A stretch of DNA of 51,651 bases. It comes from Anaerolineae bacterium (GTDB lineage: Bacteria > Chloroflexota > Anaerolineae > J102). This document shows, piece by piece, positions 12,583 through 45,240 of this stretch. Position numbers and translations under genes: made by a program. The notes below the pieces were generated by a model. That model worked only from the letters and a program-made list of their open reading frames with translations, made no database searches and was not told the DNA's origin. Each line of letters opens with the position of its first letter. Positions within the stretch are counted from its first letter, which is position 1. The stretch spans positions 1 through 51,651 of the forward strand of contig WFTO01000400.1 of NCBI GenBank assembly GCA_015485435.1. The letters run 5' to 3'.

Positions 12583-12615
12583 GGCCGGAAAACGCTTTGT
12601 TGATGAAACGGGGGG

Positions 12616-14103: not shown

Positions 14104-14180
14104 GGGACGTTTTATCTCTTTAATGCGCTAGTAGCGCCAATATGAAAGCATGAGGGCTGATGGGGATAGCCATGGATTTG

Positions 14181-14201
14181 GATTGGGAAACCATCCCAAT
14201 C
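14181..14201 (-). promoter_or_regulatory. Intercistronic hairpin GATTGGGA-AACCA-TCCCAATC
   Basis: Perfect 8-bp stem located 7 nt downstream of the stop of 14208-15629, with no U-run. Confidence 0.35.
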
Positions 14202-14207
14202 TGCATG

Positions 14208-15629: not shown

Positions 15630-15658
15630 GTATCGTGACTCTAGAATGAAAGATGGGA

Positions 15659-17074: not shown

Positions 17075-17182
17075 AAAAGGGCGAGGAAAAGCGAAAGCAA
17101 GTGGAGAGGGGGTTGGTATTGAGGATTACATGATTATACCGGGAAACCCGTCAAAGCGTGAATTTTGACCTGAAGCGCTCTG

Positions 17183-17389
17183 TTAACCCAGGTTGTCAAT
17201 GTATTTCTGAAGTTGCCGTGGATGGAACTTGATGTAATCGTGGGGGATGATCTGCGCCATTTCCTCTTCCGAGAGGCGCATGCGCAAGATGGATAGCGCA
17301 TCTTCGGGCGATTCACCGTAAGCCAGTTTGTACTTGCCATTTTTCATTTTAAAGAGAAACATATGGGTGGGATGATCAAAGCTACTCAT
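17183..17389 (-). CDS. 68-aa hypothetical protein embedded in the radical-SAM array
   Basis: Same strand as the array. AGGA lies 5 nt upstream of the ATG. No Cys, TM segment or signal peptide. Sequence: MSSFDHPTHMFLFKMKNGKYKLAYGESPEDALSILRMRLSEEEMAQIIPHDYIKFHPRQLQKYIDNLG. Confidence 0.55.
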   Translation of the reverse strand: MSSFDHPTHMFLFKMKNGKYKLAYGESPEDALSILRMRLSEEEMAQIIPHDYIKFHPRQLQKYIDNLG

Positions 17390-17503
17390 AAATGTCCTCG
17401 TAATCTGCGTCTGGCCAACGGATCAACCGTCTCCACTGCGAATTTGTAAGCCTGCCATGACCGAATGACGTCATGTATCGACGTTTCAACCAATGATGGC
17501 AGT

Positions 17504-18910: not shown

Positions 18911-18929
18911 TGTTTCAAATTCCTCCAAC

Positions 18930-20087: not shown

Positions 20088-20137
20088 AAAATGGAAAGGC
20101 GGAAGGGGATGAGCGTGGTTTTGAAGGGGTGTTGTGG

Positions 20138-21610: not shown

Positions 21611-21673
21611 CCGCATTCCTCCAATAGTTGAATTAGTGTGTGGGTGGAGTCAGTGCATCTTTGTCCCCAGTCT

Positions 21674-21744
21674 ATCATGAGAAGATGAAAGAAAACTGAA
21701 TTTGTTGAAGGTTGGTGATGTGAAATCTTTCATCTTCCCATGAT
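21674..21744 (-). promoter_or_regulatory. Long intercistronic stem-loop (18-bp stem, 35-nt loop) between two radical-SAM genes
   Basis: Arms at 21674-21691 (ATCATGAGAAGATGAAAG) and 21727-21744 (CTTTCATCTTCCCATGAT). The single non-Watson-Crick position is G-U in the minus-strand (sense) RNA and A-C in the antisense. Confidence 0.5.
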
Positions 21745-21758
21745 CGCCGGGCATCAGA

Positions 21759-23261
21759 TCAAGAAAGCGCTTGGGCTTCCATCTGTTTGCGCAAGCCGGT
21801 CTTTTCTTTTTTCGGCAAGAATGTGCGCATAGCGATTCGCAGGTTCCGGGGGAGGTTCACCCAGAAATCCTTTTGCTTCACCCGACGCCAGATAGGACCT
21901 GGGCGCAAATAGAATTGCCTGTAAGCCCGTCGATACATTTCTTCCATGAGTTCGGCCGTCAGATCGCCCATCTCGAAACGGGCCTTTTGTTCAAAGAATA
22001 CATAATCTTCCCAATCTTCGATCAAAAGGCGACCATGGCGTTTGACCTGCTCCCATACGGCCGTGCCTGGGTAGGGGGTCATCATGCTGAAGTTGGCGAT
22101 GAGGGGGTCTAATTCGATGGCGAAATTGATGGTGTCCTGCATGGTTTCACGGGTGTCGCCAGGCAAGCCGATGATCATGAAGGCTATGGTCTCGATGCCC
22201 GCCTCTTTGGTGATCTTGAAGGCTTCGCGAATAGTGTCAAGGTCGATGCGCTTATCGATGGTTTTCAACAGTTCTGGATTGCCCGTTTCTACGCCAAACG
22301 CTGTACGCTTGAGCCCGGCTTTCTTCAACTTGAACATCAGCTCTCGATCGACCAGATTGGCGCGAATGCCATTGACGAAGATCCAGGGGACGTGATTCAG
22401 CTCCCGCTCGATAAGGAGGTCTGCAATCTGATGCAATCGTTTCTTGCGGATGTTGGCGCTGTCATCCAGCACGCCAATCTCCTGAGCCCCCATGTTTTTC
22501 ACCAGGTGCTCCCACTCGGCAATCACATTCTCGGGCGTGCGGCTACGCCATTTGACCGGCATAATGGATTGGGAACAGAAGGTGCAACGGTATGGACAGC
22601 CGCGGCTCGTGAGAATGCTGAAACTTTTGGATCCATCCACCGCATCGGTGGCGGGCTGCAAGTTTGTGTACTTTTCCATCTTGAAAAGATGGTAAGCTGG
22701 CCACGGCAAGCTGTCGAGATCGGCAATGGCGGGGCGATCCGGGTTGCGATGCAGCTCCCCATCCGATGTTTTGTACGTAATGCCCAGGACATCTTTCCAA
22801 AGGCCTTTGGCTGGGTCCATCAACGCCTGGGTGGAAAAGGTCGGATAGTGACGTAGAAAATCCTCGACTTTCTCAGAAATTTCGATCCAGGTTTCTTCGC
22901 CTTCGCCCCGAACCACAATATCGATGGGACCCTGGGTCAAAGATTCATAATCCAAATCTTCGGAGACCACGCTGGGGTGCGGTCCGCCAATGACGATGGG
23001 CACATCCCACACTTTTTTGATTTCGATGGCATGTCGCCATGCCTGCTTTACCTGTGGCGTGTTGGCGGTGATGCCGATGAGATGAGGCTTGTATTCAAGG
23101 ACAAACTCACTCAGAGGTTGTTCCTCGACGTCGGCATCGAAGACAATGACTTCGTCGCCACGTTCTTCGGAGATCGCGCCGAGATAAGCTAAGCCCAAGT
23201 GCGGGCTGGTGCGAGTGTCGATAGGAAGCCGGAAGCGGGGATTGATCAATAGAACACGCAT
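21759..23261 (-). CDS. Cobalamin-binding-domain radical SAM protein (subtype I), first gene of the array
   Basis: MRVLLINPRF...GLAYLGAIS...VIGGPHPSV followed by SRGCPYRCTFCS. Start moved to the internal ATG at 23261; the 28 upstream residues of the ORF call have no counterpart in the paralogues. Confidence 0.88.
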   Translation of the reverse strand: MRVLLINPRFRLPIDTRTSPHLGLAYLGAISEERGDEVIVFDADVEEQPLSEFVLEYKPHLIGITANTPQVKQAWRHAIEIKKVWDVPIVIGGPHPSVVSEDLDYESLTQGPIDIVVRGEGEETWIEISEKVEDFLRHYPTFSTQALMDPAKGLWKDVLGITYKTSDGELHRNPDRPAIADLDSLPWPAYHLFKMEKYTNLQPATDAVDGSKSFSILTSRGCPYRCTFCSQSIMPVKWRSRTPENVIAEWEHLVKNMGAQEIGVLDDSANIRKKRLHQIADLLIERELNHVPWIFVNGIRANLVDRELMFKLKKAGLKRTAFGVETGNPELLKTIDKRIDLDTIREAFKITKEAGIETIAFMIIGLPGDTRETMQDTINFAIELDPLIANFSMMTPYPGTAVWEQVKRHGRLLIEDWEDYVFFEQKARFEMGDLTAELMEEMYRRAYRQFYLRPGPIWRRVKQKDFWVNLPRNLRIAMRTFLPKKEKTGLRKQMEAQALS

Positions 23262-23498
23262 AGACGTGAAACCTCTCAATGTGTTGGTTGGGGGCAGTAA
23301 TTCGAAAGATAAACGATGATAAGTTTTCTGAAAGGACAAGGACAAACCGACCGGTCACGAAGTTTTTCTATGCACAAACGCAAGATTCCATCACCGATCA
23401 TTCGTTTCATTTTCTGGCAAACAGCCATTTTACTGTAAATCAGCCAAATGGCCCAGTAAAATGCGTTGAAATTATAGGCGCAGTCCCGATAGATGTCA

Positions 23499-23526
23499 AA
23501 TTTTTATGAAAGAGTTCATAAAAATT
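23499..23526. promoter_or_regulatory. Perfect 12-bp inverted repeat AATTTTTATGAA-AGAG-TTCATAAAAATT in the divergent intergenic region
   Basis: Read directly from the sequence. It lies between the radical-SAM array start (23261, minus) and the methyltransferase start (23594, plus). Confidence 0.4.
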
Positions 23527-23593
23527 ATCTGGTTGTGGCGTCTTGTCAGCGGGGAGGACCATTTTTTCATCGGTGGGTGGAGGTTATGGCATA

Positions 23594-24355
23594 ATGCTAG
23601 CTATGGAGCTTCAACAGGCAGATCTAGATTATTTCGCTCGAGGTGAATGGCAGAACCCGCAATTCTGGCGTCGATTTGGCGGGCGCCCCGATTTTACCGA
23701 TACGCATGTGTTGGATGTTGGTTGTGGGCATGGCAGCATGGTCATTGATGTGGCGCGCGCAGGGGCCCGGCAAGTCGTGGGATTGGATCTGAATTGTCGA
23801 TTAATAGCATTCGCCCAAGCCAACCTACTTCAACATCATGCCGATGTCGCCAACAAGGTGACGTTCCTGTGCCAGGATCTAAAAGATTACCCCAAGGATG
23901 CGGTTTTTGATTATATGATTTCTAAGGATAGCTTTGAGCACATTCTAGACCTGCCCGGCATGCTGGCGGAGATGAAAAAACGGCTGAAGCCGGGTGGGCG
24001 CATTTATGCAGGATTCGGCCCCCTCTACAACAGTCCCCTGGGGGATCATGGGTATTCTCAATCGCGATTGCCGTGGCGTCACCTCATGTTGGGTGAGAAG
24101 GCGTTGGTCGCCCGGGTTCAAGCGCGTTGGCCTCATGCGCAGATCGACAGCCTTCACGATCTCGGTCTGAATGGCCTGGCCCTGGCGGATTATGAACGGA
24201 TTTTTGCTGAATCGGGACTACGGATCATCTCATTCCAAACCAACCGTAGCGAAAAACTCCTTTCCCGGATACTTTCTCTGCCGGCACACATCCCCTTTCT
24301 CCGAGAATTATTCACCTTTAACGTGTACGTCATTTTGGAAAAGCCGTCATCCTAA
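23594..24355 (+). CDS. Class I SAM-dependent methyltransferase
   Basis: Motif I VLDVGCGHG and post-I VVGLDL. KPGGRIY. GGTGGAGG RBS upstream of the ATG at 23594. The ORF call starts at a TTG at 23543. Confidence 0.85.
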   Translation: MLAMELQQADLDYFARGEWQNPQFWRRFGGRPDFTDTHVLDVGCGHGSMVIDVARAGARQVVGLDLNCRLIAFAQANLLQHHADVANKVTFLCQDLKDYPKDAVFDYMISKDSFEHILDLPGMLAEMKKRLKPGGRIYAGFGPLYNSPLGDHGYSQSRLPWRHLMLGEKALVARVQARWPHAQIDSLHDLGLNGLALADYERIFAESGLRIISFQTNRSEKLLSRILSLPAHIPFLRELFTFNVYVILEKPSS

Positions 24356-24443: not shown

Positions 24444-24899
24444 TTATGGTGCCCTTTTTGCTAAAAATGCACGGATTTCAAGATGCAGGGTGGTTTCGGG
24501 CGGGGTATAGGGACGCAACGGCGTCGATCGCGCCTTTGTAATGGCCGCTGACAAATCTTCCAGGTGAAAACAGGGGATCAAATAGCCTTCTGCTCCGAAG
24601 CGTTTGATGATTTGCTCCTGGTGTTTGTCGAAACGGTCGGGGTTAGGAACGCTAATCAAAGGAACGCCCGCGTAAAGCACCTCTACGGTCGTGCCAAAGC
24701 CGCCATGTGCAATGACGATGCTGGCATTTCGAATGTATTCGGTAATGTCTGGCAGGAATCGGAACCATTCGCCATGTGTGGGCTCATACAGCCCCTGTCC
24801 AATCTGAAATACGACCGACTCATCCAACGTGGGCGCCAACGTATCCACCGCCCTTACCAGGTCATCGAATTCGGTAGTGCCCACCGTGCAGAAGATCAT
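24444..24899 (-). CDS. Alg13-like / GT28 C-terminal-domain glycosyltransferase subunit (PssE/Cps14G-like)
   Basis: MIFCTVGTTEFDDLV...IAHGGFGTTVEVL. ATGA overlap with the upstream Alg14-like gene. Confidence 0.8.
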   Translation of the reverse strand: MIFCTVGTTEFDDLVRAVDTLAPTLDESVVFQIGQGLYEPTHGEWFRFLPDITEYIRNASIVIAHGGFGTTVEVLYAGVPLISVPNPDRFDKHQEQIIKRFGAEGYLIPCFHLEDLSAAITKARSTPLRPYTPPETTLHLEIRAFLAKRAP

Positions 24900-25438
24900 A
24901 GCAGCCTCCCAGCAAAGCGGGCGCGCGGGTACTTCTCTGCCAGAGATTGCCATTGCACATAGAATCGATCATACAAATGAAGATAATAAATAATGCGCGC
25001 CGTAAAGCTAAGGAATTCAATCTTCGACGCAGTCTCGATGAAGATGTGAGGGACCCCGCGCAGTTTGGCCACAAGTGCGATGGGAATTTGCAAACTAGGG
25101 CCGGCGCCAACCACAAGATCTGGTTGGGTCTGATCGAGAATCCGCCACGCGGTGATGATGGCCCCTGGCATTTTACGCATTACAGCCCAAGGGCCCTCGG
25201 TGCGCCCATGTTTTTTTTCTCGAGGCTGTTTGATACGAAACACCGGCCCAGGCACGCGTATTTTCGTTTCAGAAACGACATCATAATCGGGCACCACGTA
25301 ACAATAATCAAACTCTGGGCCTAACAGATCCACCAGCCGCAGCATTTGCTTGGTATGTCCGCCCGCGCCCAATACAATCAGCAATCGCTGACGGCCACGT
25401 GCATCCATACCTGGTTCAGAGGGCCCTTTTGCCGCCAT
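24896..25438 (-). CDS. Alg14-like glycosyltransferase partner subunit (PssD/Cps14F-like)
   Basis: LLIVLGAGGHTKQMLRLV motif. Start trimmed to the ATG at 25438 (25408 is also possible), because the long ORF call overlaps the upstream gene by more than 200 nt. Confidence 0.75.
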   Translation of the reverse strand: MAAKGPSEPGMDARGRQRLLIVLGAGGHTKQMLRLVDLLGPEFDYCYVVPDYDVVSETKIRVPGPVFRIKQPREKKHGRTEGPWAVMRKMPGAIITAWRILDQTQPDLVVGAGPSLQIPIALVAKLRGVPHIFIETASKIEFLSFTARIIYYLHLYDRFYVQWQSLAEKYPRARFAGRLL

Positions 25439-26471
25439 GATTGTCGTACCGGGCTGGAACAGGAGTGTAAGGCGGCAACGACACAATCTGGCGCTCTCGG
25501 CTGGCCCGAAGCACCTGTTCGGCCAGAAACACCGCGCGCAACCCCTCTTCGCCATTGACCAAGCCATTATATCCCTGTCGAATCGCTTCGACGAAGGTTT
25601 CGAGTTCAGCCCGTAATGGTTCCACTCGCGGGATCTCATACTTTGTTACGGCGCCTTCGGTGACCCCCACCGTGACCAGGCCAAGCCAATGATCTTGGGC
25701 CGAACGATTTTCATAAAACCAAAGCTCCTGGGTGAGATAGTTCACCAGAAACATGCCTCGCTCTCCTAACACCGACAGCTCGCGAATCTTGGTAGGGGTC
25801 AGCCAATTGATGTCCATCATGCCAACGACGCCATCATCAAAGCGTAAAATGCTAGACACCATATCTTCGTGGCTGTCATGCAAGGTCTGTTTGACCTGTG
25901 CGGCAATGGTGCGAATGCCGGCGCCAGTCAGATATTCCATAATATTCAATTCATGAGTGGCCAGATCAAACACGACTCCTACATCCTTAACGCGTGGGGG
26001 GAATGGGCCAATGCGACGGGCGTGGATTTGATAAATCTGCCCCAGCTGGCCAGCATCCAACCGCTCTTTGAGTGCAATCACGGCGGGATTAAAGCGTTCG
26101 ATATGCCCCACGCCTAATAAGACGCCATGCTCATGGCTGGCTGCGATCATATCTTGGGCCGCGGCCACCGAGTCAGCCATGGGTTTTTCGACAAACGTAT
26201 GGATTCCAGCAGCCATTGCGTCTTTGGCAGCGCGTTGATGCAAATGTGTCGGCAAGGCAATGGTGACCACGTCCAGCGCCTCTTTTTCGATCATTTCATG
26301 ATAGTCGCTATAAGGACGCGCTTTGTAGGTGCGAGAAACGCGCTCACGTAAGGCCGGGTCTAAGTCGGCAATCGCGACGAGGGTTGTTTGGGGCATACGG
26401 GCATATACACGGGCGTGGTTTGCGCCCATTGAGCCCACGCCTATAACTGCTGCACGGAGAGGCTTTGTCAA
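25416..26471 (-). CDS. Gfo/Idh/MocA-family NAD-dependent sugar oxidoreductase (WbpB-like)
   Basis: Rossmann motif AAVIGVGSMGANHARVY and the VEKPMA motif. TTG start with GAGGTG 6 nt upstream. Confidence 0.85.
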   Translation of the reverse strand: MTKPLRAAVIGVGSMGANHARVYARMPQTTLVAIADLDPALRERVSRTYKARPYSDYHEMIEKEALDVVTIALPTHLHQRAAKDAMAAGIHTFVEKPMADSVAAAQDMIAASHEHGVLLGVGHIERFNPAVIALKERLDAGQLGQIYQIHARRIGPFPPRVKDVGVVFDLATHELNIMEYLTGAGIRTIAAQVKQTLHDSHEDMVSSILRFDDGVVGMMDINWLTPTKIRELSVLGERGMFLVNYLTQELWFYENRSAQDHWLGLVTVGVTEGAVTKYEIPRVEPLRAELETFVEAIRQGYNGLVNGEEGLRAVFLAEQVLRASRERQIVSLPPYTPVPARYDNHGGKRAL

Positions 26472-26548
26472 GAGTGCACCTCATCAGGAAAAGTTGCGTA
26501 ATCAATCTTGTACATCAGGGATAATGTCATACATTGCTGGTGCATGTT

Positions 26549-26575
26549 CACATTTTGTGGTCTCTACAAAATGTG
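26549..26575. promoter_or_regulatory. Perfect 10-bp inverted repeat CACATTTTGT-N7-ACAAAATGTG upstream of the oxidoreductase gene
   Basis: Read directly from the sequence. It lies in the 357-bp gap at 26472-26828, 78-104 nt upstream of the TTG start on the minus strand, and is flanked by direct TGTTCAC words. Confidence 0.4.
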
Positions 26576-26828
26576 TTCACCAGACGGAGGCATGTCCGCC
26601 TCGGTGCAAAGGGCCCGATGGTGCGTTTTCAGTCGGTCGGGGGGACCAAAATCGCGAATCAGGTCAGTCTACGGAGTCCTCTGTGGACAGAAGGAGGACC
26701 TTCGTCGCCTCCCGAGCCGTCAAGACATGGTAGGAAGACTACGGACCGGTGTTTATAGTTTAGCAAACGGGCATGAAAACCGGATGAAAAATATCCATGC
26801 TTTTGATGACAGGACGTTCAAAGAGTGG

Positions 26829-27467
26829 TTATGAATCTTTGGGGCCAAAAATTGGCGTGTTGGGTTCACAAAGATGTGCGGGCAATGGTTGGATTCGTGC
26901 CGGAACGCCCATCGCCAATGTCCACGGAGGCACATCCTGAGTCACCACCGCGCCAGCAGCCACCATGGCGCCCTCTCCAATGCGCACGCCTGGCAGCAAC
27001 GTAGCATTTGCGCCGATGGTCACATGGTCTTCGATGATGGGGCCCTTCAACGTCAATGAATGTCGTTGGCGCAGGGGATATTTATCGTTGGTCAAGGTTG
27101 CATTGGGGCCGATAAAAACGTTACTGCCAATGGTTGTGTAAGTGGGAATATACACCTGGCTCTGGATACTTACAAAATCTCCGATGGTTATATGACCATC
27201 GAGAATGGATGCCGTTCCCACCAGTACATAATCGCCGATTTGCGTGTGCTCGCGAATCAAGACATGATGACCGGTTTTGAATCCTACGCCGATAACGACA
27301 TCGCCATAGATGATCGCCTGTGCCCGCACGATGCTGTCATCGCCCAGCCGCGCGGGACCACAGTCCTCTTGATAAACAAGCCCTACCAGAGCTTGGGGTT
27401 GAATGAGGACATTACGCCCCAGGATTGCGCGAGTAAATTCAGGTGATTGATTCATGCGAAGGGTCAT
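26829..27467 (-). CDS. Left-handed beta-helix (hexapeptide-repeat) sugar N-acetyltransferase (WbpD-like)
   Basis: Repeated [LIV]-G-x4 hexapeptides ([25 protein letters not shown]...[13 protein letters not shown]...[25 protein letters not shown]). Confidence 0.85.
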
Positions 27468-27468
27468 T

Positions 27469-28809
27469 TTACACCATTTTTTCTGATTCCGACATCCAAC
27501 GTTGAGATAACCAGCGCCATGGCGCGCCAGCAGACAAAATAATTAGAAAGGGTATCGCGGGGATAATGTATCTGCCCGCGGCAATCACCACCGCATGGCT
27601 GAGGGTGTAATACAGCAGCACAAACCCGATCACTACATGAATGATCAGCGGCAAGCTATCTTCGATAAATAAGCGAGCTCGCCAACGCCAGGCTTGAATT
27701 TCGGCCCAAAGCGCCAAAAGCAACAGACCAAAATTCGTAAGGGCGAAAAACCATGTAGCCATGGATGGATGCCAGGTGAATCCCAGATTGAACCATAATT
27801 GCAAGGTTCGCAGCGCTGAAAGCGCCATAAAACGTCCTGGATAGGCTTTCACCTTTTCTAAACCATAGCTCATGCCGAGTTGAAATAATTCCGCTTCGTT
27901 CAGGTTCAAGCCTTTGTCATCCGCCAGTTGATGGATGGCATTTAATGAAGGGCTGACTCCTGGCAATCGCCAATAATCGGGTTGATCCAATCGATAATGG
28001 GTTTGGAAAAAGTTAAACCCTACAAGGGTGCTCCCCATCACGACCTCGCCAAAGGCGCGATAGTTTCGAACAAACCAGGGAGCCACCACCCCTCCCATGA
28101 CCATGATGAACAACATGAATGATACCAGCAAACGTTTCGGGACGGTCCGATGCCTTGCTTCTTTACGTTTGCGCACATACCACCACAGCAGGAGGGCAGG
28201 CAGCAATAACAGGGGCATATACAGGGATGTGGGGCGGGCCAAAGTGGCCAATCCCAGGGAGAGTCCGGCAAGACTTGCATATGTCAGCGCGTACAGGCGA
28301 TTCTGCAGATGGCGCAACATCAATACAAAAAAGAAGAATCCGGCCATTTGCAGGAAGGCGAAAAGGGAATCTGCCAAAAGGCGTGCGGCCAGCTGCGCAC
28401 CGGGCAGATAAAATGCCCATAAGGCCGCGGCCAGCAACCCCAACCATCGAGTTCGCCAGGCCCACCATCCTAACCAGGCCAACATGGCAGCCAGTAACAC
28501 ATCCGCCAAGGCCTGCAACACCAGGAGGGGTGTATAGTTGCCCAAACCAAACAGCCGGTAGGTCTGGGCAAGTAGCCACGGATATAAAGGCGTCCGTCGC
28601 GCTGAAGGCAACCAGGGTTCTTTATAACTGAGTCCATGACCGGCGAGCAAATTACGAGCCAAAAGGTCAAACTCGACCGAATCGCCGATATGATTATCCG
28701 CCTGGGGAAAGATGAAAATCAACATCAGGCGAATGGCCAATGCCAGCAGCAAAATGACGCCCAGCATCAACCACCAGCGACGAGTGCTGTTGTATGTTTC
28801 GGAATGCAT
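27469..28809 (-). CDS. GT-C fold polytopic membrane glycosyltransferase (ArnT/PMT, GT39/GT83-like)
   Basis: About 11-13 hydrophobic segments. First-loop acidic motif IGDSVEFD. Its stop lies 1 nt from the next start. Confidence 0.65.
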
Positions 28810-28902
28810 AAGCTTAGAATCTTTCCATGGGGTTTTGGAAGCGCGCAGTAGCTATTGTGCAGGAGGTGATTGCCAGAGGCAGGGGACAGCGATCGCCAGA
28901 GA

Positions 28903-30000
28903 TCACGCCAGAGAAGCGTCGTCAAGCCCATAAGCCTGAGCCAACAATGGCGCTACCTGGCGCCACTCAAAACGCATGGCATTGCTTCTCGCGGCCAGGG
29001 ATAAACGTCTGGCGAGATCGGCCGAATTCAGCAATGTAAGTATGTGCGAGGTCAACGCCTCGACATCGCCAACCGGGGCCAGCAAGCCATTCTCACCATC
29101 CCGAATGAGATCAGGGATGGCGCCAGCGTCGGTGGAGACGATGGGCAGGCCGCTGGCGCTGGCTTCAATCAAAGTCAAAGGAAGGTTGTCGATCGCCGAG
29201 GTGTTTAAAAACACGTCGGCCGCGTCGTAAATGGCGGGCAGCGTTGCGAATGGTTGGGGTCCAGCAAATCGAACGCCCGGTACATTCATCTGTCGGACCT
29301 GCTCTTTCAAGCGCTCCTGCAAGGAGCCGCCTCCAACAAACGTCAGAGTTGCGCTGGCATGCCGTTCATGAATGCGAGAAAAAACAGCCAATGCATCTTC
29401 CGGTCGATAGCGCGGCTCGAAATGTCGTAACCACAAAATCCGCGGTTCTATGGGGCCGCGTGGTCGAAAGTGAAACCGTTCAATCGGCACGACATTGGGC
29501 ACAACGGTTGGAGAAAGGCCATATTGCTTGAAGATGGCAGCCTGGGTTGCGGTTAAGGTCAAGAGGGCATGATACCTCATGAGGGTTGCCCGCGCCAAAC
29601 CGCCATAACGCGCCATAAATGCAGCCGCCTGGCCGCCATGATAGGTGATTACCAATCGTTTGCCCCAGCGACGGGCAGTTAGTCCAACCACGGCTGGCAT
29701 GAATCCCCACCAGGAAGCACCATGAACGTGAAGGATATCCCATTCATCCCGCGTAGTGCGCAAGTTGCGTATAAGGTGGGCAACCTGAGCTGTAGGGAAC
29801 ATCCAACGTCGCATATCCCGCCTGATTCGCAACCACGGAATGTCGGTATTGATTCGTGTCACCTGCGCCCCCGAGCTCTCCAGGGCGTCGGATAGGATGG
29901 CGCATTGCACGGAAACACCCCCGGGGCGAGGCGGGAATGGTCCCAAAATCGCCACTCTGACGTGCCGCCAGTCACGCGACGAGGCTTCATGCACGTCCAT
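28903..30000 (-). CDS. GT4-family (group 1) glycosyltransferase
   Basis: N-terminal VAILGPFPPRPGGVSVQ. C-terminal EX7E region EASASGLPIVSTDAGAIPDLIRDGENGLL. Start trimmed to the ATG at 30000. Confidence 0.85.
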   Translation of the reverse strand: MDVHEASSRDWRHVRVAILGPFPPRPGGVSVQCAILSDALESSGAQVTRINTDIPWLRIRRDMRRWMFPTAQVAHLIRNLRTTRDEWDILHVHGASWWGFMPAVVGLTARRWGKRLVITYHGGQAAAFMARYGGLARATLMRYHALLTLTATQAAIFKQYGLSPTVVPNVVPIERFHFRPRGPIEPRILWLRHFEPRYRPEDALAVFSRIHERHASATLTFVGGGSLQERLKEQVRQMNVPGVRFAGPQPFATLPAIYDAADVFLNTSAIDNLPLTLIEASASGLPIVSTDAGAIPDLIRDGENGLLAPVGDVEALTSHILTLLNSADLARRLSLAARSNAMRFEWRQVAPLLAQAYGLDDASLA

Positions 30001-31378
30001 CGCTCCACGTCCTATTTGAGCTTTGAATGACTTCTGAAATAAAGTACAGTCGTTTGCCAGCCGGCGTGGGAGGTATTTCATCCACTACATCGATGGTCAC
30101 CTGACAATCCTTGCCCATACATGCATGCAGCGAATCGACAACAGATTGACGATCTGCCTCTCCGAAATCATTGTTTACGACAAGCTTCACGACCACGTGC
30201 TGAATATCCTTTTGAATAACCTGAAACGCTTCGATCGAATCCATAGCTCTGAAAAAACAGGCGTGATGCACCGTTAACCAACCCCCATCGGCCGTGACAA
30301 AGAGATCCGTGAGGCGACCAGCAAGCTGACTGAGGCGAGGAAGCGAGCGGCCGCAACGACAGGGCTCGTGGGAGAGCGTGGCTACATCATGGATATTATA
30401 ACGGATAAATGGGGTTGCGGTTGCTTCTAAATTGGTGAGAACCACCTCGCCCAGTTCTCCATCAGGTGAGCGCTTCCCAGCTTTTACGATCTCTAAAATG
30501 ACGCTCTCTGCGTTGATATGCAGGCCGTCATGTTGATCACATTCTGCAGCGATCTGCATGCCATCCCCGCCATATTCATTGAACACCCTGCCAGGAGAAA
30601 ACGCTTGTTCAATGGTTTCACGCATCGATTCGGTTAACGTGTCGCCGGTGGTCGTCAATACGGGTATCGAAACGTGAAGTCCCAACTCGAGCATACGCTC
30701 CGCTAAAAGAAACATGTTCGACGCGTAGCTACGAAAAAGCTTCGGGCGCCATGTTTTTAAATGCTCGACATATCGCTTAATGACGTCATCATCAATCAGC
30801 TCCCAGGCAGACAGCCAATGATGCCGCAGAAGCAACCATTCTATATGACCCACAAGAGGCCAGTGCCTCAACCCGCGGTTTCCAGCTAATTGCAAGGTGA
30901 CGTATGGTTCCCCAAAATCGTAGCCTGCCATCCGCCACCACCGAAATAATCCTGCCCATTTCTTCGCTTTCTGCGCCTTTGTCGTCCAGTAATATAAGCG
31001 TTCACCCGTCGATCCACTTGAGCGGGCTTGAATCAGCGCCTTGTCTGGCAATGATTGGTCGCGCATAAGCGTGTCGTAATAACGTGCAATAATTTTCTTA
31101 TCCACAATGGGCAATTTTTCCAGATCGTCTACGGTTTGGATGTCGTCTGGCGTTAGACCTCGCTCCTGCATTACCTGACGATAAAATGGCACATGTTGAT
31201 ATACATGGTTGATGAGCCGTCGCAGTTTGGCATTCTGCAGTTCGCGTATTTGTGCCCAAGACCACCATTGACTTTCCTCCAGTTGTCGAAGATAAGGCAA
31301 GAAGTCACCATACCCCGCCAGATGCGAACCGATTGGAATAGCTGCTTGACGCAAAAACCAGCGATATATGCTCATCAT
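29987..31378 (-). CDS. CapK/PaaK-like (phenylacetate-CoA ligase / F390-synthetase family) adenylate-forming enzyme, copy 2
   Basis: ANL P-loop-like SSGSTGERLYYW. TTTGDTL, EYGGDG and IRYNIHD motifs. About 70-75% identical by eye to 31646-33022. Confidence 0.8.
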   Translation of the reverse strand: MMSIYRWFLRQAAIPIGSHLAGYGDFLPYLRQLEESQWWSWAQIRELQNAKLRRLINHVYQHVPFYRQVMQERGLTPDDIQTVDDLEKLPIVDKKIIARYYDTLMRDQSLPDKALIQARSSGSTGERLYYWTTKAQKAKKWAGLFRWWRMAGYDFGEPYVTLQLAGNRGLRHWPLVGHIEWLLLRHHWLSAWELIDDDVIKRYVEHLKTWRPKLFRSYASNMFLLAERMLELGLHVSIPVLTTTGDTLTESMRETIEQAFSPGRVFNEYGGDGMQIAAECDQHDGLHINAESVILEIVKAGKRSPDGELGEVVLTNLEATATPFIRYNIHDVATLSHEPCRCGRSLPRLSQLAGRLTDLFVTADGGWLTVHHACFFRAMDSIEAFQVIQKDIQHVVVKLVVNNDFGEADRQSVVDSLHACMGKDCQVTIDVVDEIPPTPAGKRLYFISEVIQSSNRTWSDGRA

Positions 31379-31645
31379 TCACCTGCTGCCATCGAGTCTG
31401 TGTGTTAAGGGATTGTTTTATGGGGTTACAATCTTTTTCGGTTGGATGATTAGGTTTCACTCGGCTATCATACGATGACAGTGGCGGTGTTAGGGCGGCG
31501 AACAAAAAAACACTAGCGTGATGACAGTGCCTTCCCACACATTTTTCTGCGAGATGCGCATTTGGTTTGATGGTTCGTTGGCGCCACAGACGGCCATCTT
31601 GTTACCTGTCCAGATGAATGTTGTGGACGCAGCATGGGTTTGGTT

Positions 31646-33022
31646 TCAAACGACATCATTGGGCGCGCCTTGGATCACCTCAGAGATGAAAAAACGACGT
31701 TTTCCCACAGGCGAAACCGGAATCTCATCGACAAACTGCAATTCAAAGCGTGTGTTCGGGCCCATATAGCGTCGAAAGGTTTCCACTATGCGTTTTTCAT
31801 CGGATGGCTGAAAACGATCGTCCACCACCAGTTTTATGACGATCAAATCAACGGCTTTTTGAATGACCTGGAACGCTTTGACCGCGTGTAATTTGGCGAA
31901 AAAGGCCGTAAACTGATGCACGGTTAACCAATGACCATCTGAAGTGACGAACATATCGGTCAGGCGCCCTTCCAGATGACTGAGTCGTGGCAGGCCCCGA
32001 CCGCACTGACAGGGCTCCCAGGTCAGCGCGGCGACATCATGGATGTTGTAGCGAATAAATGGCGTGGCCGTTGCCTCCAGGTTTGTGAGCACCACCTCTC
32101 CTAGTTCTCCCTCGGACGCGCGCTTGCCATCTTTGATGATCTCCACAATGTACGTTTCGGCATTGATGTGCAGCCCGCGATGCATCTCACATTCCGCAGC
32201 AATCTGCATCCCATCCCCGCCATATTCGTTGAAGACGCGTCCGGGCGCAAATGCCTGTTCGATGGTCTCCCGCATGTGGTCGGTTAAGGTTTCACCTGTG
32301 GTGAGAATGGCGGGAATGGTCACCTGCAATCCCCGTTCATTCATTCGTCTGGCCAGGTAATAGACCGTAGAGGCGTAACTACGAAATAGTTTTGGCTGCC
32401 ACGATCTGAGATCTTCTATGTATCGAGCCAATACATCATCAGTCATCTCCTGGGCTGAAAGCCAATGATGACGCAACAGCAACCATTCCAGCTGGCCCAC
32501 CAAGGGCCAATTTTTAAAGCCCTGGTTAGGAGCCAACTGAAATGTCACGTAAGAATCGCCAAACTCATACCCGACCATCTCCCACCAGCGAAACAAGCCA
32601 GCCCATTTCTTCGCTTTCTGGGCTTTGGTCGTCCAATAATGCAATCTTTCGGCAGTAGAACCGCTCGACGTGGCATGGATCAAGTGTTTGCGAGGGATAG
32701 AGTGGTCGCGCAGGGTCGTATCGTAATACTTTGTTAGCACTTTTTTGTCCACGATGGGCAGTTTGACCAAATCATCCACGGTTTGAATATCCGCGGGCGT
32801 TAACCCTCGTTCATCCATCACTTGACGATAGAAGGGCACATGATCATACACATGGGCTATCAAGCGACGTAATTTTGCGTCTTGCAGCGCCCGGATTTGT
32901 TCAGGCGACCACCATTGGCTTTGTTCGAGCTGTTGAAGATAGGGAAGAAAGTCGCCGTAGCCAGCCAGGCGTGAACCAATTGGAAGGATAAAAGTTCGCA
33001 AGAATTGGCTATATATGCTCAT
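31646..33022 (-). CDS. CapK/PaaK-like adenylate-forming enzyme, copy 1
   Basis: SSGSTAERLHYW (Gly to Ala relative to the paralogue). Collinear with 29987-31378. ATGA overlap with the upstream Wzy-like gene. Confidence 0.8.
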   Translation of the reverse strand: MSIYSQFLRTFILPIGSRLAGYGDFLPYLQQLEQSQWWSPEQIRALQDAKLRRLIAHVYDHVPFYRQVMDERGLTPADIQTVDDLVKLPIVDKKVLTKYYDTTLRDHSIPRKHLIHATSSGSTAERLHYWTTKAQKAKKWAGLFRWWEMVGYEFGDSYVTFQLAPNQGFKNWPLVGQLEWLLLRHHWLSAQEMTDDVLARYIEDLRSWQPKLFRSYASTVYYLARRMNERGLQVTIPAILTTGETLTDHMRETIEQAFAPGRVFNEYGGDGMQIAAECEMHRGLHINAETYIVEIIKDGKRASEGELGEVVLTNLEATATPFIRYNIHDVAALTWEPCQCGRGLPRLSHLEGRLTDMFVTSDGHWLTVHQFTAFFAKLHAVKAFQVIQKAVDLIVIKLVVDDRFQPSDEKRIVETFRRYMGPNTRFELQFVDEIPVSPVGKRRFFISEVIQGAPNDVV

Positions 33023-34479
33023 GTTGCCTGAATTTGTTCATCAATGACGCGATCGGTGAAGGAACCGCCACCGAGGGTTGCAGAGATGGCGCCTCCCATG
33101 ATGGCGAAGAAGATCAAATTTGCATAGAGAGAAAAAGCGTTATCGAAAAAGGCAATGGGAATGACATAGGCGAAAAAGCTGGCCAATGCAGCCAGGATAA
33201 ATAATGGGAAAAATCGCCGCTGCCGCCGTCGAGGCCAGCCAATGACGATCAAGGTGATGGCGAGTCCTAGCAACATCAACACATAACCGCCCAACAAGGC
33301 ATAACCTCCAGAAACCAGGAAATTCAGATAGGAATTGTGCGTGCTGGGCAATACGTGGATGCCGTTATCGCGGAAACCCTGATCTGCAGCCAGTCGCCCG
33401 AACCATCCCCAGCCAACGCCCAGGTAGGGAGCGCTTTTGTGAATGTCAAGACCGATCCTCAGGGCGGTTAAACGGTAATCAATGGGGCTCTCAGAAGTGA
33501 GTCTGGCGCCAACTTCGGTTTGGCTCAAGGCTCCCCAACTTAAACCAAGGACTAATCCTAAAATCAGCAAAATAGGCAATACATAACGCAATAATCGCCT
33601 GTTAAGCAACGAAAAAACCATAGGACCGATCAGTCCACCCACCATGGCCGATCGATTAAAGGTCGCGATGATCCCTGCTTCGAGCAAGATGAGCGCCGCC
33701 AGGTAGCCTATCCGGTCACGAATGTTTTTCATCTCGATGCTAAGCATTATAGCGAGGGGCGCGATCACGGCCAACGCCAATCCAACATAGGCGGGATTGC
33801 CAAAAAAGCTTCCCACTTTGCGGATATCGCCACTGTAAATTTTGGCTCCAGTCCCAAAACGGAATGGCGCGAACCCTGTGGCTTGTTCCACTATCGCGGC
33901 GACAGCGATGACGATTCCTATGCCTAAAAGGGTCTTTGCCAACCGCTGAAAATCCTCTGGCCGCAGGATCAGTTGTCGGGCGATGAAATAGACCAACATG
34001 GGCATCAGAAATGCGTCGAATACGGCCTGGACGCCCCACAGCCATCCAAAATATCCCCGTACTGCCGCCCATAACAGCGGAATGATAAAGAAAGGCAAGG
34101 CAAGCTCGAAGAAGGTGGGGACCAACAACTTCCGACGACCTAACGCCACCTGGGCGAGAAGGTATACGGCAAAAATGCTGCCAACAACCCGCGCGTAGCT
34201 AAGGTCGGGTATGCCTGCAGGCATGTGAAGATCAAACCGTAAAAAGGGAGCAAATGGTATGAAAAATAGCCAAACCAGAAACGCCAGGAGTGGATCAAAA
34301 AAAAGCAGCGAGAGCGTAAGTAGAATGGCGCTCAATGCAATGATTTGATCGGCGAGATCGGGCTGGTAAAAAATAGCCCATCCCAAAACGATGGCCGCGA
34401 CTACGCCTATCAGGAATACGAGGGTGTTCGCAATAAAGACTTTGCGAGAGGAGAAAACAGCGTCCATAGTCGCTATCAT
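33019..34479 (-). CDS. O-antigen ligase / Wzy_C-family polytopic membrane protein
   Basis: At least 10 hydrophobic segments, with a central loop following ...TFNRSAMVGGLIG... typical of Wzy_C proteins. The start is uncertain: ATG at 34479 or 34467, or TTG at 34527. Confidence 0.65.
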   Translation of the reverse strand: MIATMDAVFSSRKVFIANTLVFLIGVVAAIVLGWAIFYQPDLADQIIALSAILLTLSLLFFDPLLAFLVWLFFIPFAPFLRFDLHMPAGIPDLSYARVVGSIFAVYLLAQVALGRRKLLVPTFFELALPFFIIPLLWAAVRGYFGWLWGVQAVFDAFLMPMLVYFIARQLILRPEDFQRLAKTLLGIGIVIAVAAIVEQATGFAPFRFGTGAKIYSGDIRKVGSFFGNPAYVGLALAVIAPLAIMLSIEMKNIRDRIGYLAALILLEAGIIATFNRSAMVGGLIGPMVFSLLNRRLLRYVLPILLILGLVLGLSWGALSQTEVGARLTSESPIDYRLTALRIGLDIHKSAPYLGVGWGWFGRLAADQGFRDNGIHVLPSTHNSYLNFLVSGGYALLGGYVLMLLGLAITLIVIGWPRRRQRRFFPLFILAALASFFAYVIPIAFFDNAFSLYANLIFFAIMGGAISATLGGGSFTDRVIDEQIQAT

Positions 34480-34575
34480 AGACCAGGATATCGATTTTGC
34501 CAAGAGTTTTGGTAAAAAGTTCGCCAACGTCCTGTCTATACGTCGCCGGGAACCTGCACCCTCTCTTTACCTCAT

Positions 34576-35418
34576 TCAGGCCCGTTCAATAAATGTGACG
34601 CCAAACGCCCGAAACCCACCGTGGGCGCCTAAAACTGGTCCCGCCTCGGCCACCAACACGTTGCGGCGAGGGAAAGACAACGCAGGCGCGGCTAAATCGG
34701 CCAATTGAAGCGCGAATTCTGGAGCGCGAGTATGCGCCGTCGCCAGCCGCTCCGCTTTTTTGCCGCGAATCCGTTGAAGGATGTGCTTCATTCCCTTTCT
34801 GGGAGTGCGCACTGCTCCGCCAAACGTCAACTCCCCCTTTCTCATTTCCAAAATGACGCGAATGGAAAGCACACTCGACATGCGTTTGACAACATTCATG
34901 GCCAAGGCGATCCGTCCACCGCGCTGAACAGCATCCAGCGAGTCGAGATACAAAATCAGTCGCAGTCGGGCGCGTGCATCCGCCAACTGCGCCAGCGTCT
35001 CCTGAACATCAGCCCCCTGTTCGATGAGGGAAGCCGCATGTAAAACCAGCAATCCCTCCCCCAAAGAAATGGCCCATGAGTCGAAGACATGCACCCTCCC
35101 TGCAAACGCTTCCGCCGCCAAAACCGCATTCTGATAGGTGCTGCTGTGCTTGCTGGTCAAGGTGATCATAATGGCTTCATCTGCGCGGGCCAGCGCCCGT
35201 TGATAGGCTTCAGCAAAGGTGGCAGGTGAGGGAGAGGCTGTGCGGGGCGTTTCGCCGCGAGCAAACCGCTGCCAGAATGCTTCCCGTTGCTCATATACAT
35301 CAAAAAATTCCTCCTCGCCAAAGTGGATAAGCAGAGGCACGACAATGATATGTTTGCGGGCCAGGATCTCTGGTGGCAGATCGTTGCTGCTGTCTGTAAT
35401 TAGTGCGATTCGACTCAT
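34576..35418 (-). CDS. DegV-family fatty-acid-binding protein
   Basis: MSRIALITDSSNDLPPE N-terminus and an overall DegV-like pattern. Start trimmed to the ATG at 35418. Confidence 0.8.
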   Translation of the reverse strand: MSRIALITDSSNDLPPEILARKHIIVVPLLIHFGEEEFFDVYEQREAFWQRFARGETPRTASPSPATFAEAYQRALARADEAIMITLTSKHSSTYQNAVLAAEAFAGRVHVFDSWAISLGEGLLVLHAASLIEQGADVQETLAQLADARARLRLILYLDSLDAVQRGGRIALAMNVVKRMSSVLSIRVILEMRKGELTFGGAVRTPRKGMKHILQRIRGKKAERLATAHTRAPEFALQLADLAAPALSFPRRNVLVAEAGPVLGAHGGFRAFGVTFIERA

Positions 35419-35742
35419 GTTGTTAGTGTAACCGCAAGCGTCCTTTTCGAACAATCTGTCCTGACGGAGGGATGCCAAAAGGACCGACCTAAGTCGGCAA
35501 AGAGGGCGCCTGCGCCCACCCGCCTACCCGTTTCATGCGCCAATCTGCATCACCCGGCCAGCATCGGGAACGCTGCCGGCCCTACGGATATTGCCTGCCC
35601 TCACCAAACCGGTTATCAGTTTACTTCGGAATGATGTAAAATGTAATGTAATTTGCCAACCCTTTATGGGAAAAAGCCAATTCTCCTTCCCCTCAACATT
35701 TCCTTGCTTTCTTTAGGACAAAGCATCGGGATATTCTGCCTT

Positions 35743-37290
35743 ATGAAAACGCGCCTCATTGTCGGACTCCTTCTCAGCTTGCTTATCCTATCGTTCGGAC
35801 GCTCCGCCGTCGAGGCCAACGGAGATCCCCCATACAACCCACTGCAACAACCATCCTCCTCATCCCCTTATGGCATGGATCTCATGGGGCCGGGTTGGCA
35901 GTGGACCTTCCCCCGCGAAGAGGCCTGGCCCCGATCGGATGGCGCGATCCGTGTCGATCTGATGGATGAAATGTTCCAGAAAAGCTGGGCCGCCGGAGTC
36001 CGTAGCGCTCGTATTGCTGTGTTATGGTGCCTGACTGAGCCAGAACGAGATCGCTACCAATGGGAAGAGCTAGATATTGCCTTTCAGCTTGCTCGAAATT
36101 ACGGCATGGAAATCGCGCCCCAGGTCTTTTATACGCCTGATTGGGCGGCATTAGGGCGCGACATCGACGCCAGCTGTTTTGATTATCAGATTTATCCTCG
36201 GAATCTGCCCCCGAAGAACTGGCAGGATTGGTCTGATTTCATGGGCGCGTTGTTAAGGCGTTACGGTCCCCCCGGTAAAAATCAAGTGCATCAATGGGAG
36301 ATATGGAACGAGCCCGATCTCTTTGAGTTTTGGTATATCCCTGATGATCCCTGGAACGCCAACGCGCCCATGTATGCAAAGCTTGTGCAACTTGCCGCTC
36401 GCGAAATCGATCGTTATGATCCTCAAGGAAAAGTTCTGGTGGGAAGCCTGTCGGATATTTATGGGGCAAAATTCTTGCAACGGTTGTTGGCGCTTCGGGG
36501 TGATGAGGACATTCGAGGCGAGATCGATGTTTTGACGTTTCATGTCTTTGATGAACCAGAGCGGAAAATGAACGCCATTCACGAAGCGTTAGGCGATAAT
36601 CAGTTTCCCCTTTGGGTTACGGAGACCAATGCTCGATTGTGGGAAGAAACGATTCCGCGCGACCATGTCGTACGGTTCTTCGAGGCATTGTTCAATAACG
36701 GTGTAAGCCGAACGTTCTGGTTCAAATCCTGGACGTCGGAATGGGGGCCTGGAATATTCACCGATGAGGGGCCCTTATGGGAGCGCACGGACTTTCAGCC
36801 GAGTCCCTTTTATTCCACCTATCAAAACATAGCCCTACGCTCCCCTGCCCCCTCCAGCCCACAGGTGCAATCCCCCAGGCCCAAGGATCTCGTCAACCCG
36901 CAACCCATTTTCACCTGGCGCCCCCCATCCTCCAGCGCTTCCCCGATAGCTGGCTATAAATTGCAGGTCGACAATAGCCTGTTTCGCGGCAAGCCTTACT
37001 TTCACTCTCCAGAACTTGATGTGTGGGTTCCCGCCGGGCTAACCCATTTCCTTCCCCTTCAAATGGTGGGAAACGGCTCATCTCCCTCCTCGCCACCTTC
37101 CCAGCTGGCTCCCCCTGCGGTGTCTGTTGTTCACTATCAGCCGACCTTTGCACTGTCGCCAGGGCGATATTACTGGCGCGTCGCCGCGGTGGATGTCGAG
37201 GGGAATGTGGGCGAGTATTCGGACCCACAACTCATTTTCGTTTCGGCCGGTCAGGATCGAGTGTACCTTCCCTTCCTGGAGCGACCATAG
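35743..37290 (+). CDS. Secreted clan GH-A (TIM-barrel, GH5/GH39-like) glycoside hydrolase with a C-terminal Ig/Fn3-like region
   Basis: Signal peptide MKTRLIVGLLLSLLILSFG. Acid/base motif WEIWNEPD and nucleophile context LWVTETN. Start moved from the TTG at 35653 to the ATG at 35743. Confidence 0.8.
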   Translation: MKTRLIVGLLLSLLILSFGRSAVEANGDPPYNPLQQPSSSSPYGMDLMGPGWQWTFPREEAWPRSDGAIRVDLMDEMFQKSWAAGVRSARIAVLWCLTEPERDRYQWEELDIAFQLARNYGMEIAPQVFYTPDWAALGRDIDASCFDYQIYPRNLPPKNWQDWSDFMGALLRRYGPPGKNQVHQWEIWNEPDLFEFWYIPDDPWNANAPMYAKLVQLAAREIDRYDPQGKVLVGSLSDIYGAKFLQRLLALRGDEDIRGEIDVLTFHVFDEPERKMNAIHEALGDNQFPLWVTETNARLWEETIPRDHVVRFFEALFNNGVSRTFWFKSWTSEWGPGIFTDEGPLWERTDFQPSPFYSTYQNIALRSPAPSSPQVQSPRPKDLVNPQPIFTWRPPSSSASPIAGYKLQVDNSLFRGKPYFHSPELDVWVPAGLTHFLPLQMVGNGSSPSSPPSQLAPPAVSVVHYQPTFALSPGRYYWRVAAVDVEGNVGEYSDPQLIFVSAGQDRVYLPFLERP

Positions 37291-44126: not shown

Positions 44127-44394
44127 ACTAAATTGACGCAGATAGAAAGTATGAAGCCTGGTTTGCAGGTGTCAAGTCGCAGGTGGCAGGTCAACGAATG
44201 TAAGCCTCTACCTGCTTCCTACTACTTGCTACTTGCTCTCTACTCGCTGCTCCCTGCTGCCAATTTTCATCGGTATCGATCGGCGGGTGTCCGCCCACCA
44301 TGTCGTCCGTACTCAATTTGAACCAATAAAATCTGAACTTTTGTGAACCGAGACCCCCTCGGTCATTGACTTCATGCTGGACAAGGAGGTCATC

Positions 44395-45237: not shown

Positions 45238-45240
45238 GCC

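Follow-up and report, generated by a model that had tools for sequence, protein, structure and literature searches.

The closest described counterparts of the locus considered here are Wzx/Wzy clusters that carry a split Alg14/Alg13-like glycosyltransferase, as in Rhizobium (PssD/PssE) and Streptococcus pneumoniae (Cps14F/Cps14G). PssD/PssE-type transferases and Wzy_C proteins use polyprenol-linked intermediates as substrates. Further points of comparison are the diacetamido-sugar pathways exemplified by Pseudomonas aeruginosa WbpA/B/E/D/I, Bordetella WlbA-D and GnnA/GnnB, the membrane domains of ArnT, PMT and AglB/STT3, and VpsH, a PaaK/CapK-like enzyme of the Vibrio cholerae VPS cluster that adds glycine to the GulNAcA uronic acid of a lipid-linked disaccharide and represents the first functional assignment in the CapK ligase family (2026; PMC13463779). 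We analyzed a 51,651-nucleotide (nt) stretch of DNA, contig WFTO01000400.1 of an uncultured Anaerolineae bacterium (hereafter, the window), focusing on a glycan locus at positions 24444-37290 that the initial annotation had merged with a neighboring array of radical S-adenosylmethionine (rSAM) enzyme genes. With a probability that we put at about 65%, the region 24,444-34,527 on the minus strand is a self-contained surface-glycan repeat-unit cassette, probably together with an adjacent methyltransferase gene, that is transcribed and inherited independently of the array.

As in the PssD/PssE-type clusters, the Alg14-like subunit (24896-25438, minus strand; Pfam Alg14) and the Alg13-like catalytic subunit (24444-24899, minus strand; Pfam Glyco_tran_28_C) of the split glycosyltransferase are encoded by adjacent genes, the start codon of the latter overlapping the stop codon of the former (ATGA, 4-nt overlap), and both proteins pass the equivalog cut-offs of NCBIfam (PssD, 112.7 bits versus 110; PssE, 132.9 versus 120). 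A GT4 glycosyltransferase and a Wzy_C membrane protein are likewise shared. The window differs from these clusters in that it has no initiating phosphoglycosyltransferase (PGT), Wzx flippase or chain-length regulator of the polysaccharide co-polymerase family (PCP/Wzz), in that a GT-C glycosyltransferase and CapK ligases are added, and in its host, a member of the Chloroflexota rather than a proteobacterium or firmicute. With the diacetamido-sugar pathways the locus shares a 3-dehydrogenase-like Gfo/Idh/MocA oxidoreductase (Gfo) and a QdtC/WlbB-like left-handed beta-helix (LbH) acetyltransferase, whereas the linking 3-aminotransferase (DegT/WbpE), the 6-dehydrogenase and the 2-epimerase are found neither in the window nor in any cassette variant seen, and Gfo scores 314 bits against an NCBIfam cut-off of 450. 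Taken together, the locus is lipid-linked repeat-unit assembly of a known general kind, combining a Wzy_C protein, a PssD/PssE pair, a GT4, a GT-C, a 3-acetamido-sugar module and CapK tailoring.

The cassette is present in about 11 Chloroflexota lineages (homologous loci are denoted below by L numbers), and its gene order, Wzy_C, CapK, GT4, GT-C, LbH, Gfo, Alg14, Alg13, recurs in at least seven diverged lineages, so that it is no chance grouping. The full order is seen in L002, L003, L013 and L154, as well as in the visible part of L018/L096. In L006 and L151 the cassette is rearranged or has genes substituted, and in L150 it lacks both LbH and a GT-C; two SDR epimerase/dehydratase genes are inserted in L150 and L151, and in the latter a different GT-C-like membrane protein follows Alg13. 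Wzy_C orthologs head the cassette in L002, L003, L013, L149-L152 and L154. In L149 and L152 only Wzy_C-CapK-GT4 is retained (in L149 also LbH), and these three genes adjoin one another in this order throughout the lineages examined. All genes named in the initial annotation were recovered at their positions by our map of open reading frames (ORFs) and by family scans, and its view of the region as a glycan-assembly locus is borne out by the family and fold assignments and by the conserved cassette. The tight junctions it had pointed out are likewise real, five of the nine being overlapping or 1 nt apart (-4, -23, +1, -14 and -4; the remaining gaps measure 93, 96, 270 and 357 nt): in addition to the Alg14-Alg13 overlap, the start of CapK1 overlaps the stop of Wzy_C by 4 nt, GT4 overlaps CapK2 by 14 nt and LbH starts 1 nt past the stop of GT-C. 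Judging from this spacing, the cassette junctions are probably translationally coupled. The class I SAM methyltransferase gene that converges with Alg13 (23543-24355, plus strand; Pfam Methyltransf_25/31/11) belongs with the cassette and not with the array, because its 73%-identical ortholog in L154 also converges with Alg13 where the array is absent; conversely, the gene is missing from all array loci but L018, the sole array locus that also has the cassette.

The array (11497-23345, minus strand) consists, by Pfam assignment, of six B12-binding rSAM genes and two SPASM rSAM genes, together with an ORF of 68 amino acids (aa). In the initial annotation the glycan genes shared the strand of the array and immediately preceded it; the strand is indeed the same, but the opposite-strand methyltransferase gene and a promoter intervene. 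The promoter is a perfect sigma-70 consensus (TTGACA-N17-TATAAT, 23471-23499, minus strand), the sole such site in the 51.6-kb window, located 126-210 nt upstream of the first rSAM gene, and perfect sites occurred in 0 of 100 shuffled sequences. A perfect consensus is also found upstream of the ortholog of the first B12-rSAM gene (B12_1) in 25 of 54 related loci across Anaerolineae and Caldilineae (e.g. L016:6397, L024:6671 and L041:6637), regardless of the preceding gene. Such a conserved perfect promoter followed by a leader of roughly 130-210 nt suggests strong, autonomous expression of the array. Inside the cassette, a sigma-70 scan returned no more sites than in shuffled sequence, and the terminator fold in the convergent spacer between Alg13 and the methyltransferase gene was not significant (RNA folding, z = -1.1). 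The rSAM proteins are 89-99% identical across lineages whose glycan proteins are 66-93% identical. Together, the array's own conserved promoter, the opposite-strand gene between the modules and the differing protein identities point to two independently transcribed modules with different evolutionary rates.

The distribution of the two modules is consistent with their independence. The array lies directly downstream of the cassette in four of the approximately 11 lineages (the window, L002, L003 and L018/L096), which form a single clade (GT-C identity of at least 72%). The cassette has no adjacent array in L013, L154, L006, L150 and L151. It is followed by rpsO-pnp in L013, by the methyltransferase, an SdrD_B surface protein and a PGT in L154 (where 4.6 kb are visible past Alg13, compared with 10 kb in the others), by an NYN-domain gene and further glycosyltransferase (GT) genes in L006, and by unrelated genes in L149-L152. 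Cassette and array reside on separate contigs in the metagenome-assembled genomes (MAGs) JAKOVD01 (L151 versus L024) and JAGFJG01 (L149 versus L031), and in JALWZT01 the Wzy_C-CapK-GT4 trio (L152) is off the array contig (L019), which is only 6.7 kb long and starts inside the array. Viewed from the side of the array, a profile scan in which each species was represented by a single genome yielded at least 134 array loci, every one in Anaerolineae, Caldilineae or another Chloroflexota group, and 80 of them were retrieved; the central SPASM rSAM protein (18930-20087) alone has 511 homologue clusters at E ≤ 1e-20. In a tblastn matrix of all window proteins, 57 of these 80 loci had an ortholog of the first B12-rSAM gene, 42 of them with at least 3.2 kb of upstream sequence, and any cassette gene upstream of the array was found at one of these 42 informative loci from distinct species, namely L018. 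Elsewhere the array is preceded by genes for RtcB, MoaA, an ArsR-type regulator, IscA or further B12-rSAM proteins, in the close relatives L016 and L020 by genes for KsgA, PlsC, a LysM protein and a large surface protein; GatA is often encoded downstream, like gatCA in the window. The 24-kb one-strand supercluster proposed initially is not upheld by these figures, by the restriction of the adjacency to one clade or by the separate array promoter, and conserved co-localization of the two gene sets across genomes is seen from neither side. The adjacency of cassette and array appears to be a clade-specific juxtaposition. We also considered whether array flanks are glycan-related in general and rejected the idea, as 9 of the 80 loci have a GT-type gene of any kind no more than 10 kb from the array, the lineage L081-L084 being one of these cases; by a rough, uncomputed estimate this is about background.

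The gene heading the cassette (33019-34527, minus strand; Pfam Wzy_C, 41.3 bits versus a cut-off of 31.7) has its likely start at the ATG at 34479, giving a protein of 486 aa with 12 predicted transmembrane helices and a large loop of about 75 aa (residues 318-395). A sequence search of the PDB returned zero matches for it, and by sequence its Wzy_C domain is not separable between a polymerase, a ligase (WaaL) and a PglL-type O-oligosaccharyltransferase. CapK1 (31646-33022, minus strand), a PaaK/CapK-family adenylate-forming ligase, is the conserved copy, being 83-86% identical to the single copy of L003, L013, L152 and L154. CapK2 (29987-31378, minus strand) is 69% identical to CapK1, from which it is separated by a 270-nt spacer, and occurs only in the window, L001 and L002, with one CapK copy in every other cassette variant; it appears to be a lineage-specific tandem duplicate. 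CapK aligns with PaaK in the PDB (4r1l, E = 5.5e-27) over residues 34-361, including the SSGST P-loop; PaaK-type NCBIfam matches of CapK1 reach about 136 bits, which is under the cut-offs, and PF27533 (CapK_C) is recorded for the identical protein P0149. VpsH is the best available functional analogy for these ligases. It is likewise a PaaK/CapK-family enzyme encoded inside a Wzy-type glycan locus, near GT4 and acetyltransferase genes, although the likeness is by family only, and the window CapK differs in being duplicated and, by its gene overlap, apparently translationally coupled to Wzy_C. The third member of the trio is a GT4 glycosyltransferase of the GT-B fold (28903-30000, minus strand; Pfam Glyco_trans_1_4, Glycos_transf_1 and Glyco_transf_4), for which the gene call of 365 aa was taken from the identical contig L001.

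The next gene (27469-28809, minus strand) encodes a membrane glycosyltransferase without a large soluble domain. A PDB sequence search gave zero matches, and the Pfam PMT score of 22.0 bits falls just short of the cut-off of 22.7; close homologues have precomputed PF02366 or PF13231 assignments. The GT-C fold is confirmed at the level of the predicted structure: an AlphaFold2 model built with 24 homologues (pLDDT 85.3, pTM 0.88) produced 11 Foldseek matches at E ≤ 0.001, all of them GT-C enzymes (AglB, STT3, ArnT and Pmt4) with a probability of 1.00 each, PglB also being among the top hits, at query-normalised TM-scores of about 0.5-0.56. D43 and D48 (GDSVEFD, first extracytoplasmic loop) are conserved in at least 90% of the 24 aligned homologues, so that the protein shares with the membrane domains of ArnT, PMT and AglB/STT3 both the predicted fold and a conserved acidic residue in this loop. 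It differs from them in its size of 446 aa and in belonging to a very narrow subfamily, comprising 18 clusters at 47% identity or higher (among 5.8 billion proteins) and, when 1.84 billion representatives were searched exhaustively with HMMER, 9 of them at E ≤ 1e-30. All its named relatives come from Anaerolineae or Chloroflexota MAGs, and a metagenome scan with the GT-C alignment added three usable close loci, two of which duplicate lineages already found. In line with the initial proposal of extracytoplasmic transfer, the GT-C and Wzy_C membrane proteins imply steps outside the cytoplasmic membrane.

The sugar module comprises LbH (26829-27467, minus strand; Pfam Hexapep) and Gfo (25416-26471, minus strand). 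The best PDB match of LbH is QdtC (3fs8, E = 6e-34), followed by WxcM-like 4mzu, 7s43 and WlbB-type 3mqg; QdtC, WxcM-like and WlbB-type enzymes are N-acetyltransferases of 3-amino sugars, which places LbH in this class. Gfo is closest to UDP-GlcNAc 3-dehydrogenases of the WbpB/GnnA type, its top NCBIfam match being NF040723 (E = 1e-93) and its best PDB match 7bvj (E = 9e-28), named there as an NAD-binding oxidoreductase, which we take to be GnnA, the 3-dehydrogenase that acts in the synthesis of lipid A GlcN3N. Its TTG start and GAGGTG ribosome-binding site are conserved. The gap between the WbpB-like and WbpD-like steps noted in the initial annotation is therefore apt, Gfo being 3-dehydrogenase-like and LbH of the 3-amino-sugar type, with the aminotransferase absent from the window.

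Two features of this module deserve a separate remark. In a variant of 54% identity (L006:2354-5429, also in L007 and L008), LbH is fused to a biotin/lipoyl domain and preceded by genes for the alpha and beta subunits of a thiamine pyrophosphate (TPP)-dependent E1 enzyme, so that E1-alpha, E1-beta and a lipoyl-LbH fusion take the place of the plain LbH; this arrangement hints at acyl supply from a 2-oxo acid via the lipoyl arm. The intergenic region between LbH and Gfo (26472-26828, minus strand), aligned among the window, L002, L003 and L018, has its first ~85 nt conserved in all four (TGAACGTCCTGTCATC...TTTTCATCCGGTTTTCAT...GTTTGCTAAACT), and this block may serve as a promoter within the cassette or as a regulatory site. 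A further ~150 nt, including a perfect 10-bp hairpin (CACATTTTGT-N7-ACAAAATGTG), is found there in the window alone. Rfam at gathering thresholds gave no match in the whole window, so that the internal gaps of the cassette and the ~200-nt leader of the array contain no known riboswitch.

With regard to functions expected for such a pathway, the absences listed initially (initiator, flippase, Wzz and nucleotide-sugar synthases) held up. Pfam scans of the whole window found no PGT, Wzx/ABC exporter, Wzz, DegT aminotransferase or nucleoside diphosphate (NDP)-sugar genes; the Pfam and NCBIfam scans covered nearly all ORFs of at least 150 aa, a few outside the locus being judged by eye. The rest of the window is of a housekeeping or regulatory character (HtrA-like protease, gatCA, SDR, tkt, rpe, RadC, Memo/AMMECR1, histidine kinase and others). 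A tblastn search of the window with the Bac_transf PGT of L154 gave a best E-value of 0.52. Neither a Wzx (MOP) flippase or ABC exporter nor a chain-length regulator was found in any of the cassette variants fetched, and the only DegT gene is that of L006, located ~7 kb from the cassette. The PGT of L154, a protein of 249 aa, is encoded ~3.6 kb past Alg13 (PF02397; NCBIfam EPS_sugtrans, 253 bits versus a cut-off of 296). Because this Bac_transf PGT adjoins an orthologous cassette, the polyprenol-linked route gains support and the missing initiator is no peculiarity of the cassette chemistry. Most likely, the initiator, the flippase and the aminotransferase are encoded elsewhere in the genome of the window organism.

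At the other end of the locus, a gene for a fatty-acid-binding DegV protein (34576-35478, minus strand; Pfam, 212 bits; also NCBIfam DegV) precedes Wzy_C in the window, L002 and L003 only, and other genes occupy this place in L149, L151, L152 and L154. Divergent from DegV is a gene for a secreted or anchored GH39-like hydrolase (35653-37290, plus strand; Pfam GH39, 27.3 bits versus a cut-off of 26; N-terminal hydrophobic segment). Both were considered as members of the cassette and rejected, since they are not conserved alongside it. The hydrolase is PslG-like, as initially suggested, its best PDB match being PslG of the Pseudomonas psl exopolysaccharide operon (5bx9), a weak match with E = 2.8e-6 and ~150 residues aligned; a conserved association with the cassette was not observed, the gene being divergent, outside the operon and, besides the window, next to the cassette only in L002.

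The most likely product of the cassette is a polyprenol-linked repeat unit that contains a 3-acetamido sugar and is probably, by analogy with VpsH, amidated by CapK. We infer the substrates, the order of the steps and the final acceptor as follows. Gfo would oxidise a UDP-HexNAc, or its uronic acid, at C3, an unlinked aminotransferase would convert the product into a 3-amino sugar, and the QdtC/WlbB-like LbH would N-acetylate it. Polyprenyl phosphate would be primed by an unlinked PGT of the Bac_transf or WecA type, after which the split PssD/PssE (Alg14/Alg13) enzyme would add a second sugar and GT4 a further one. CapK, with ATP, would activate a carboxylate, most plausibly one belonging to a uronic acid of the lipid-linked intermediate, for amide formation with an amine or amino acid, as VpsH does; the methyltransferase may O-methylate the product. 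An unlinked flippase would then move the unit across the membrane, where GT-C could add a residue from a polyprenyl-phosphate sugar, and finally the Wzy_C protein would either polymerise the unit or transfer it to an acceptor.

Several observations weigh against a self-contained and independent cassette of this kind. The initiator, the flippase, the aminotransferase, the 6-dehydrogenase and a polyprenyl-phosphate sugar synthase are all missing from the window, leaving the pathway incomplete as seen. Gfo stays below its NCBIfam cut-off and none of the variants has an adjacent aminotransferase, so Gfo may have a role other than in amination. All four lineages of the clade retain the junction between cassette and array though the far flank varies (tkt/GH39 in the window and L002, nuo genes in L003), which is compatible with some selected linkage. 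Finally, L081-L084 (e.g. L084:13401-15736), where genes for a GT2 and a WbaP-type PGT closely follow the array in the same orientation, are a second, independent case of an array beside glycan genes. The four loci represent one Anaerolineales lineage, in which the PGT is full-length (Bac_transf and CoA_binding_3) and the pair stands ahead of hrcA-dnaK.

One alternative concerns the last step and the acceptor. Instead of being polymerised, a short lipid-linked oligosaccharide could, once flipped, be transferred to S-layer, sheath or other surface proteins, with Wzy_C acting as an O-oligosaccharyltransferase of the PglL/PilO type and GT-C as a PMT-like enzyme. The Wzy_C domain is common to WaaL, Wzy and PglL-type enzymes; of these roles, that of WaaL is unlikely because, to our knowledge, Chloroflexota have no lipopolysaccharide (LPS). 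The fold matches of GT-C include the AglB/STT3/PglB oligosaccharyltransferases and the protein O-mannosyltransferase Pmt4, no cassette variant has a chain-length regulator, and genes for large SdrD_B-type surface proteins flank the cassette in L151 and L154. On the other hand, GT-C has no soluble acceptor-binding domain and its fold matches are proteins of 490-870 aa that are only partly covered, the three Wzy_C activities are inseparable by sequence with no PDB sequence match to guide the choice, and no acceptor protein is conserved beside the cassette. Protein O-glycosylation is a conceivable but rather unlikely outcome.

The original notion that cassette and array form one ~24-kb supercluster, whose glycan, glycolipid or glycopeptide product is modified by the B12-rSAM and SPASM enzymes, is very improbable. 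The adjacency of the modules on one strand in the window clade and, as the main argument, the arrangement in L081-L084 speak for it, and some B12-rSAM enzymes, GenK and AprD4, act on sugars; AprD4-type NCBIfam matches of the array proteins, however, reach only 92-113 bits against a cut-off of 500. Against it stand the single cassette-bearing locus among the 42 informative array loci, the near-background frequency of GT-type genes around arrays by our rough estimate, the five lineages with a cassette and no array, the separation onto different contigs in at least two MAGs, the array's own conserved promoter with an opposite-strand gene between the modules, and their very different rates of evolution. 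We give even less credence to a narrower version, in which cassette, methyltransferase and array are functionally coupled within the window clade and the B12-rSAM/SPASM enzymes modify the glycan or a lipid or peptide acceptor, for example by C-methylation or cross-linking, with L081-L084 as a second instance; if true, the coupled modules would produce an undescribed rSAM-tailored envelope glycoconjugate. Least probable of all is a glycolipid built directly on an acyl- or diacylglycerol-type anchor instead of polyprenyl diphosphate, so that no PGT is needed, with DegV delivering a fatty acid that CapK adenylates for N-acylation of the 3-amino sugar: it would account for the fatty-acid-binding DegV as first gene in the window, L002 and L003, for the membership of CapK in the acyl-adenylate-forming superfamily, for the resemblance of Gfo to presumed GnnA and for the lack of PGT and flippase in the window, but DegV is outside the cassette in L149, L151, L152 and L154, PssD/PssE-type transferases and Wzy_C proteins as families work on polyprenol-linked intermediates, a PGT adjoins the cassette of L154, and LbH is closest to acetyl-CoA-dependent sugar N-acetyltransferases rather than acyl-ACP enzymes.

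A surface-glycan cassette that is independent of the array has consequences for both modules. Two modules that looked like one are now separated, and a false supercluster is removed. For the envelope glycans of the poorly studied, mostly uncultured Chloroflexota, the cassette adds modestly to present knowledge; it leaves current models of glycan assembly unchallenged, and its Wzy_C-CapK-GT4 trio offers a testable context for the CapK ligase family. The array, widespread in Anaerolineae and Caldilineae and very strongly conserved, deserves study apart from the glycan locus.

Concerning the array itself, 3-6 B12-rSAM and 1-2 SPASM rSAM genes are combined in at least 134 species-level Chloroflexota genomes, with protein identity of up to 99%, and none of the array proteins reaches any NCBIfam equivalog cut-off. 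Literature searches on B12-rSAM arrays in Anaerolineae/Chloroflexi, on Alg14 in Chloroflexi and on the archaeal threonine-adding enzyme AglU, which is probably F390-synthetase-like, yielded nothing usable. The 68-aa ORF inside the array (17183-17389, minus strand; MSSFDHPTHMFLFKMKNGKYKLAYG...; also L003:20713-20919 and L018:12868-13071) has no Pfam match and shows 84-90% conservation among close relatives and 54-71% at greater distance. Every locus with this ORF also has an ortholog of the third B12-rSAM paralogue (17504-18928). The ORF may encode a partner protein or a substrate peptide.

Two further observations were made in passing. The window contains an adjacent pair of Memo-like and AMMECR1 genes (44374-45855, plus strand). 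Both belong to the AmmeMemoRadiSam triad, whose usual third member, a radical SAM protein, is not encoded beside them. Among the RtcB genes upstream of arrays, those of L024, L025, L047, L053, L064, L070, L075 (3867-6869) and L076 encode proteins of about 1000 aa with an intein-sized insert, and uninterrupted RtcB genes (~490 aa) are found at 20 other array loci.

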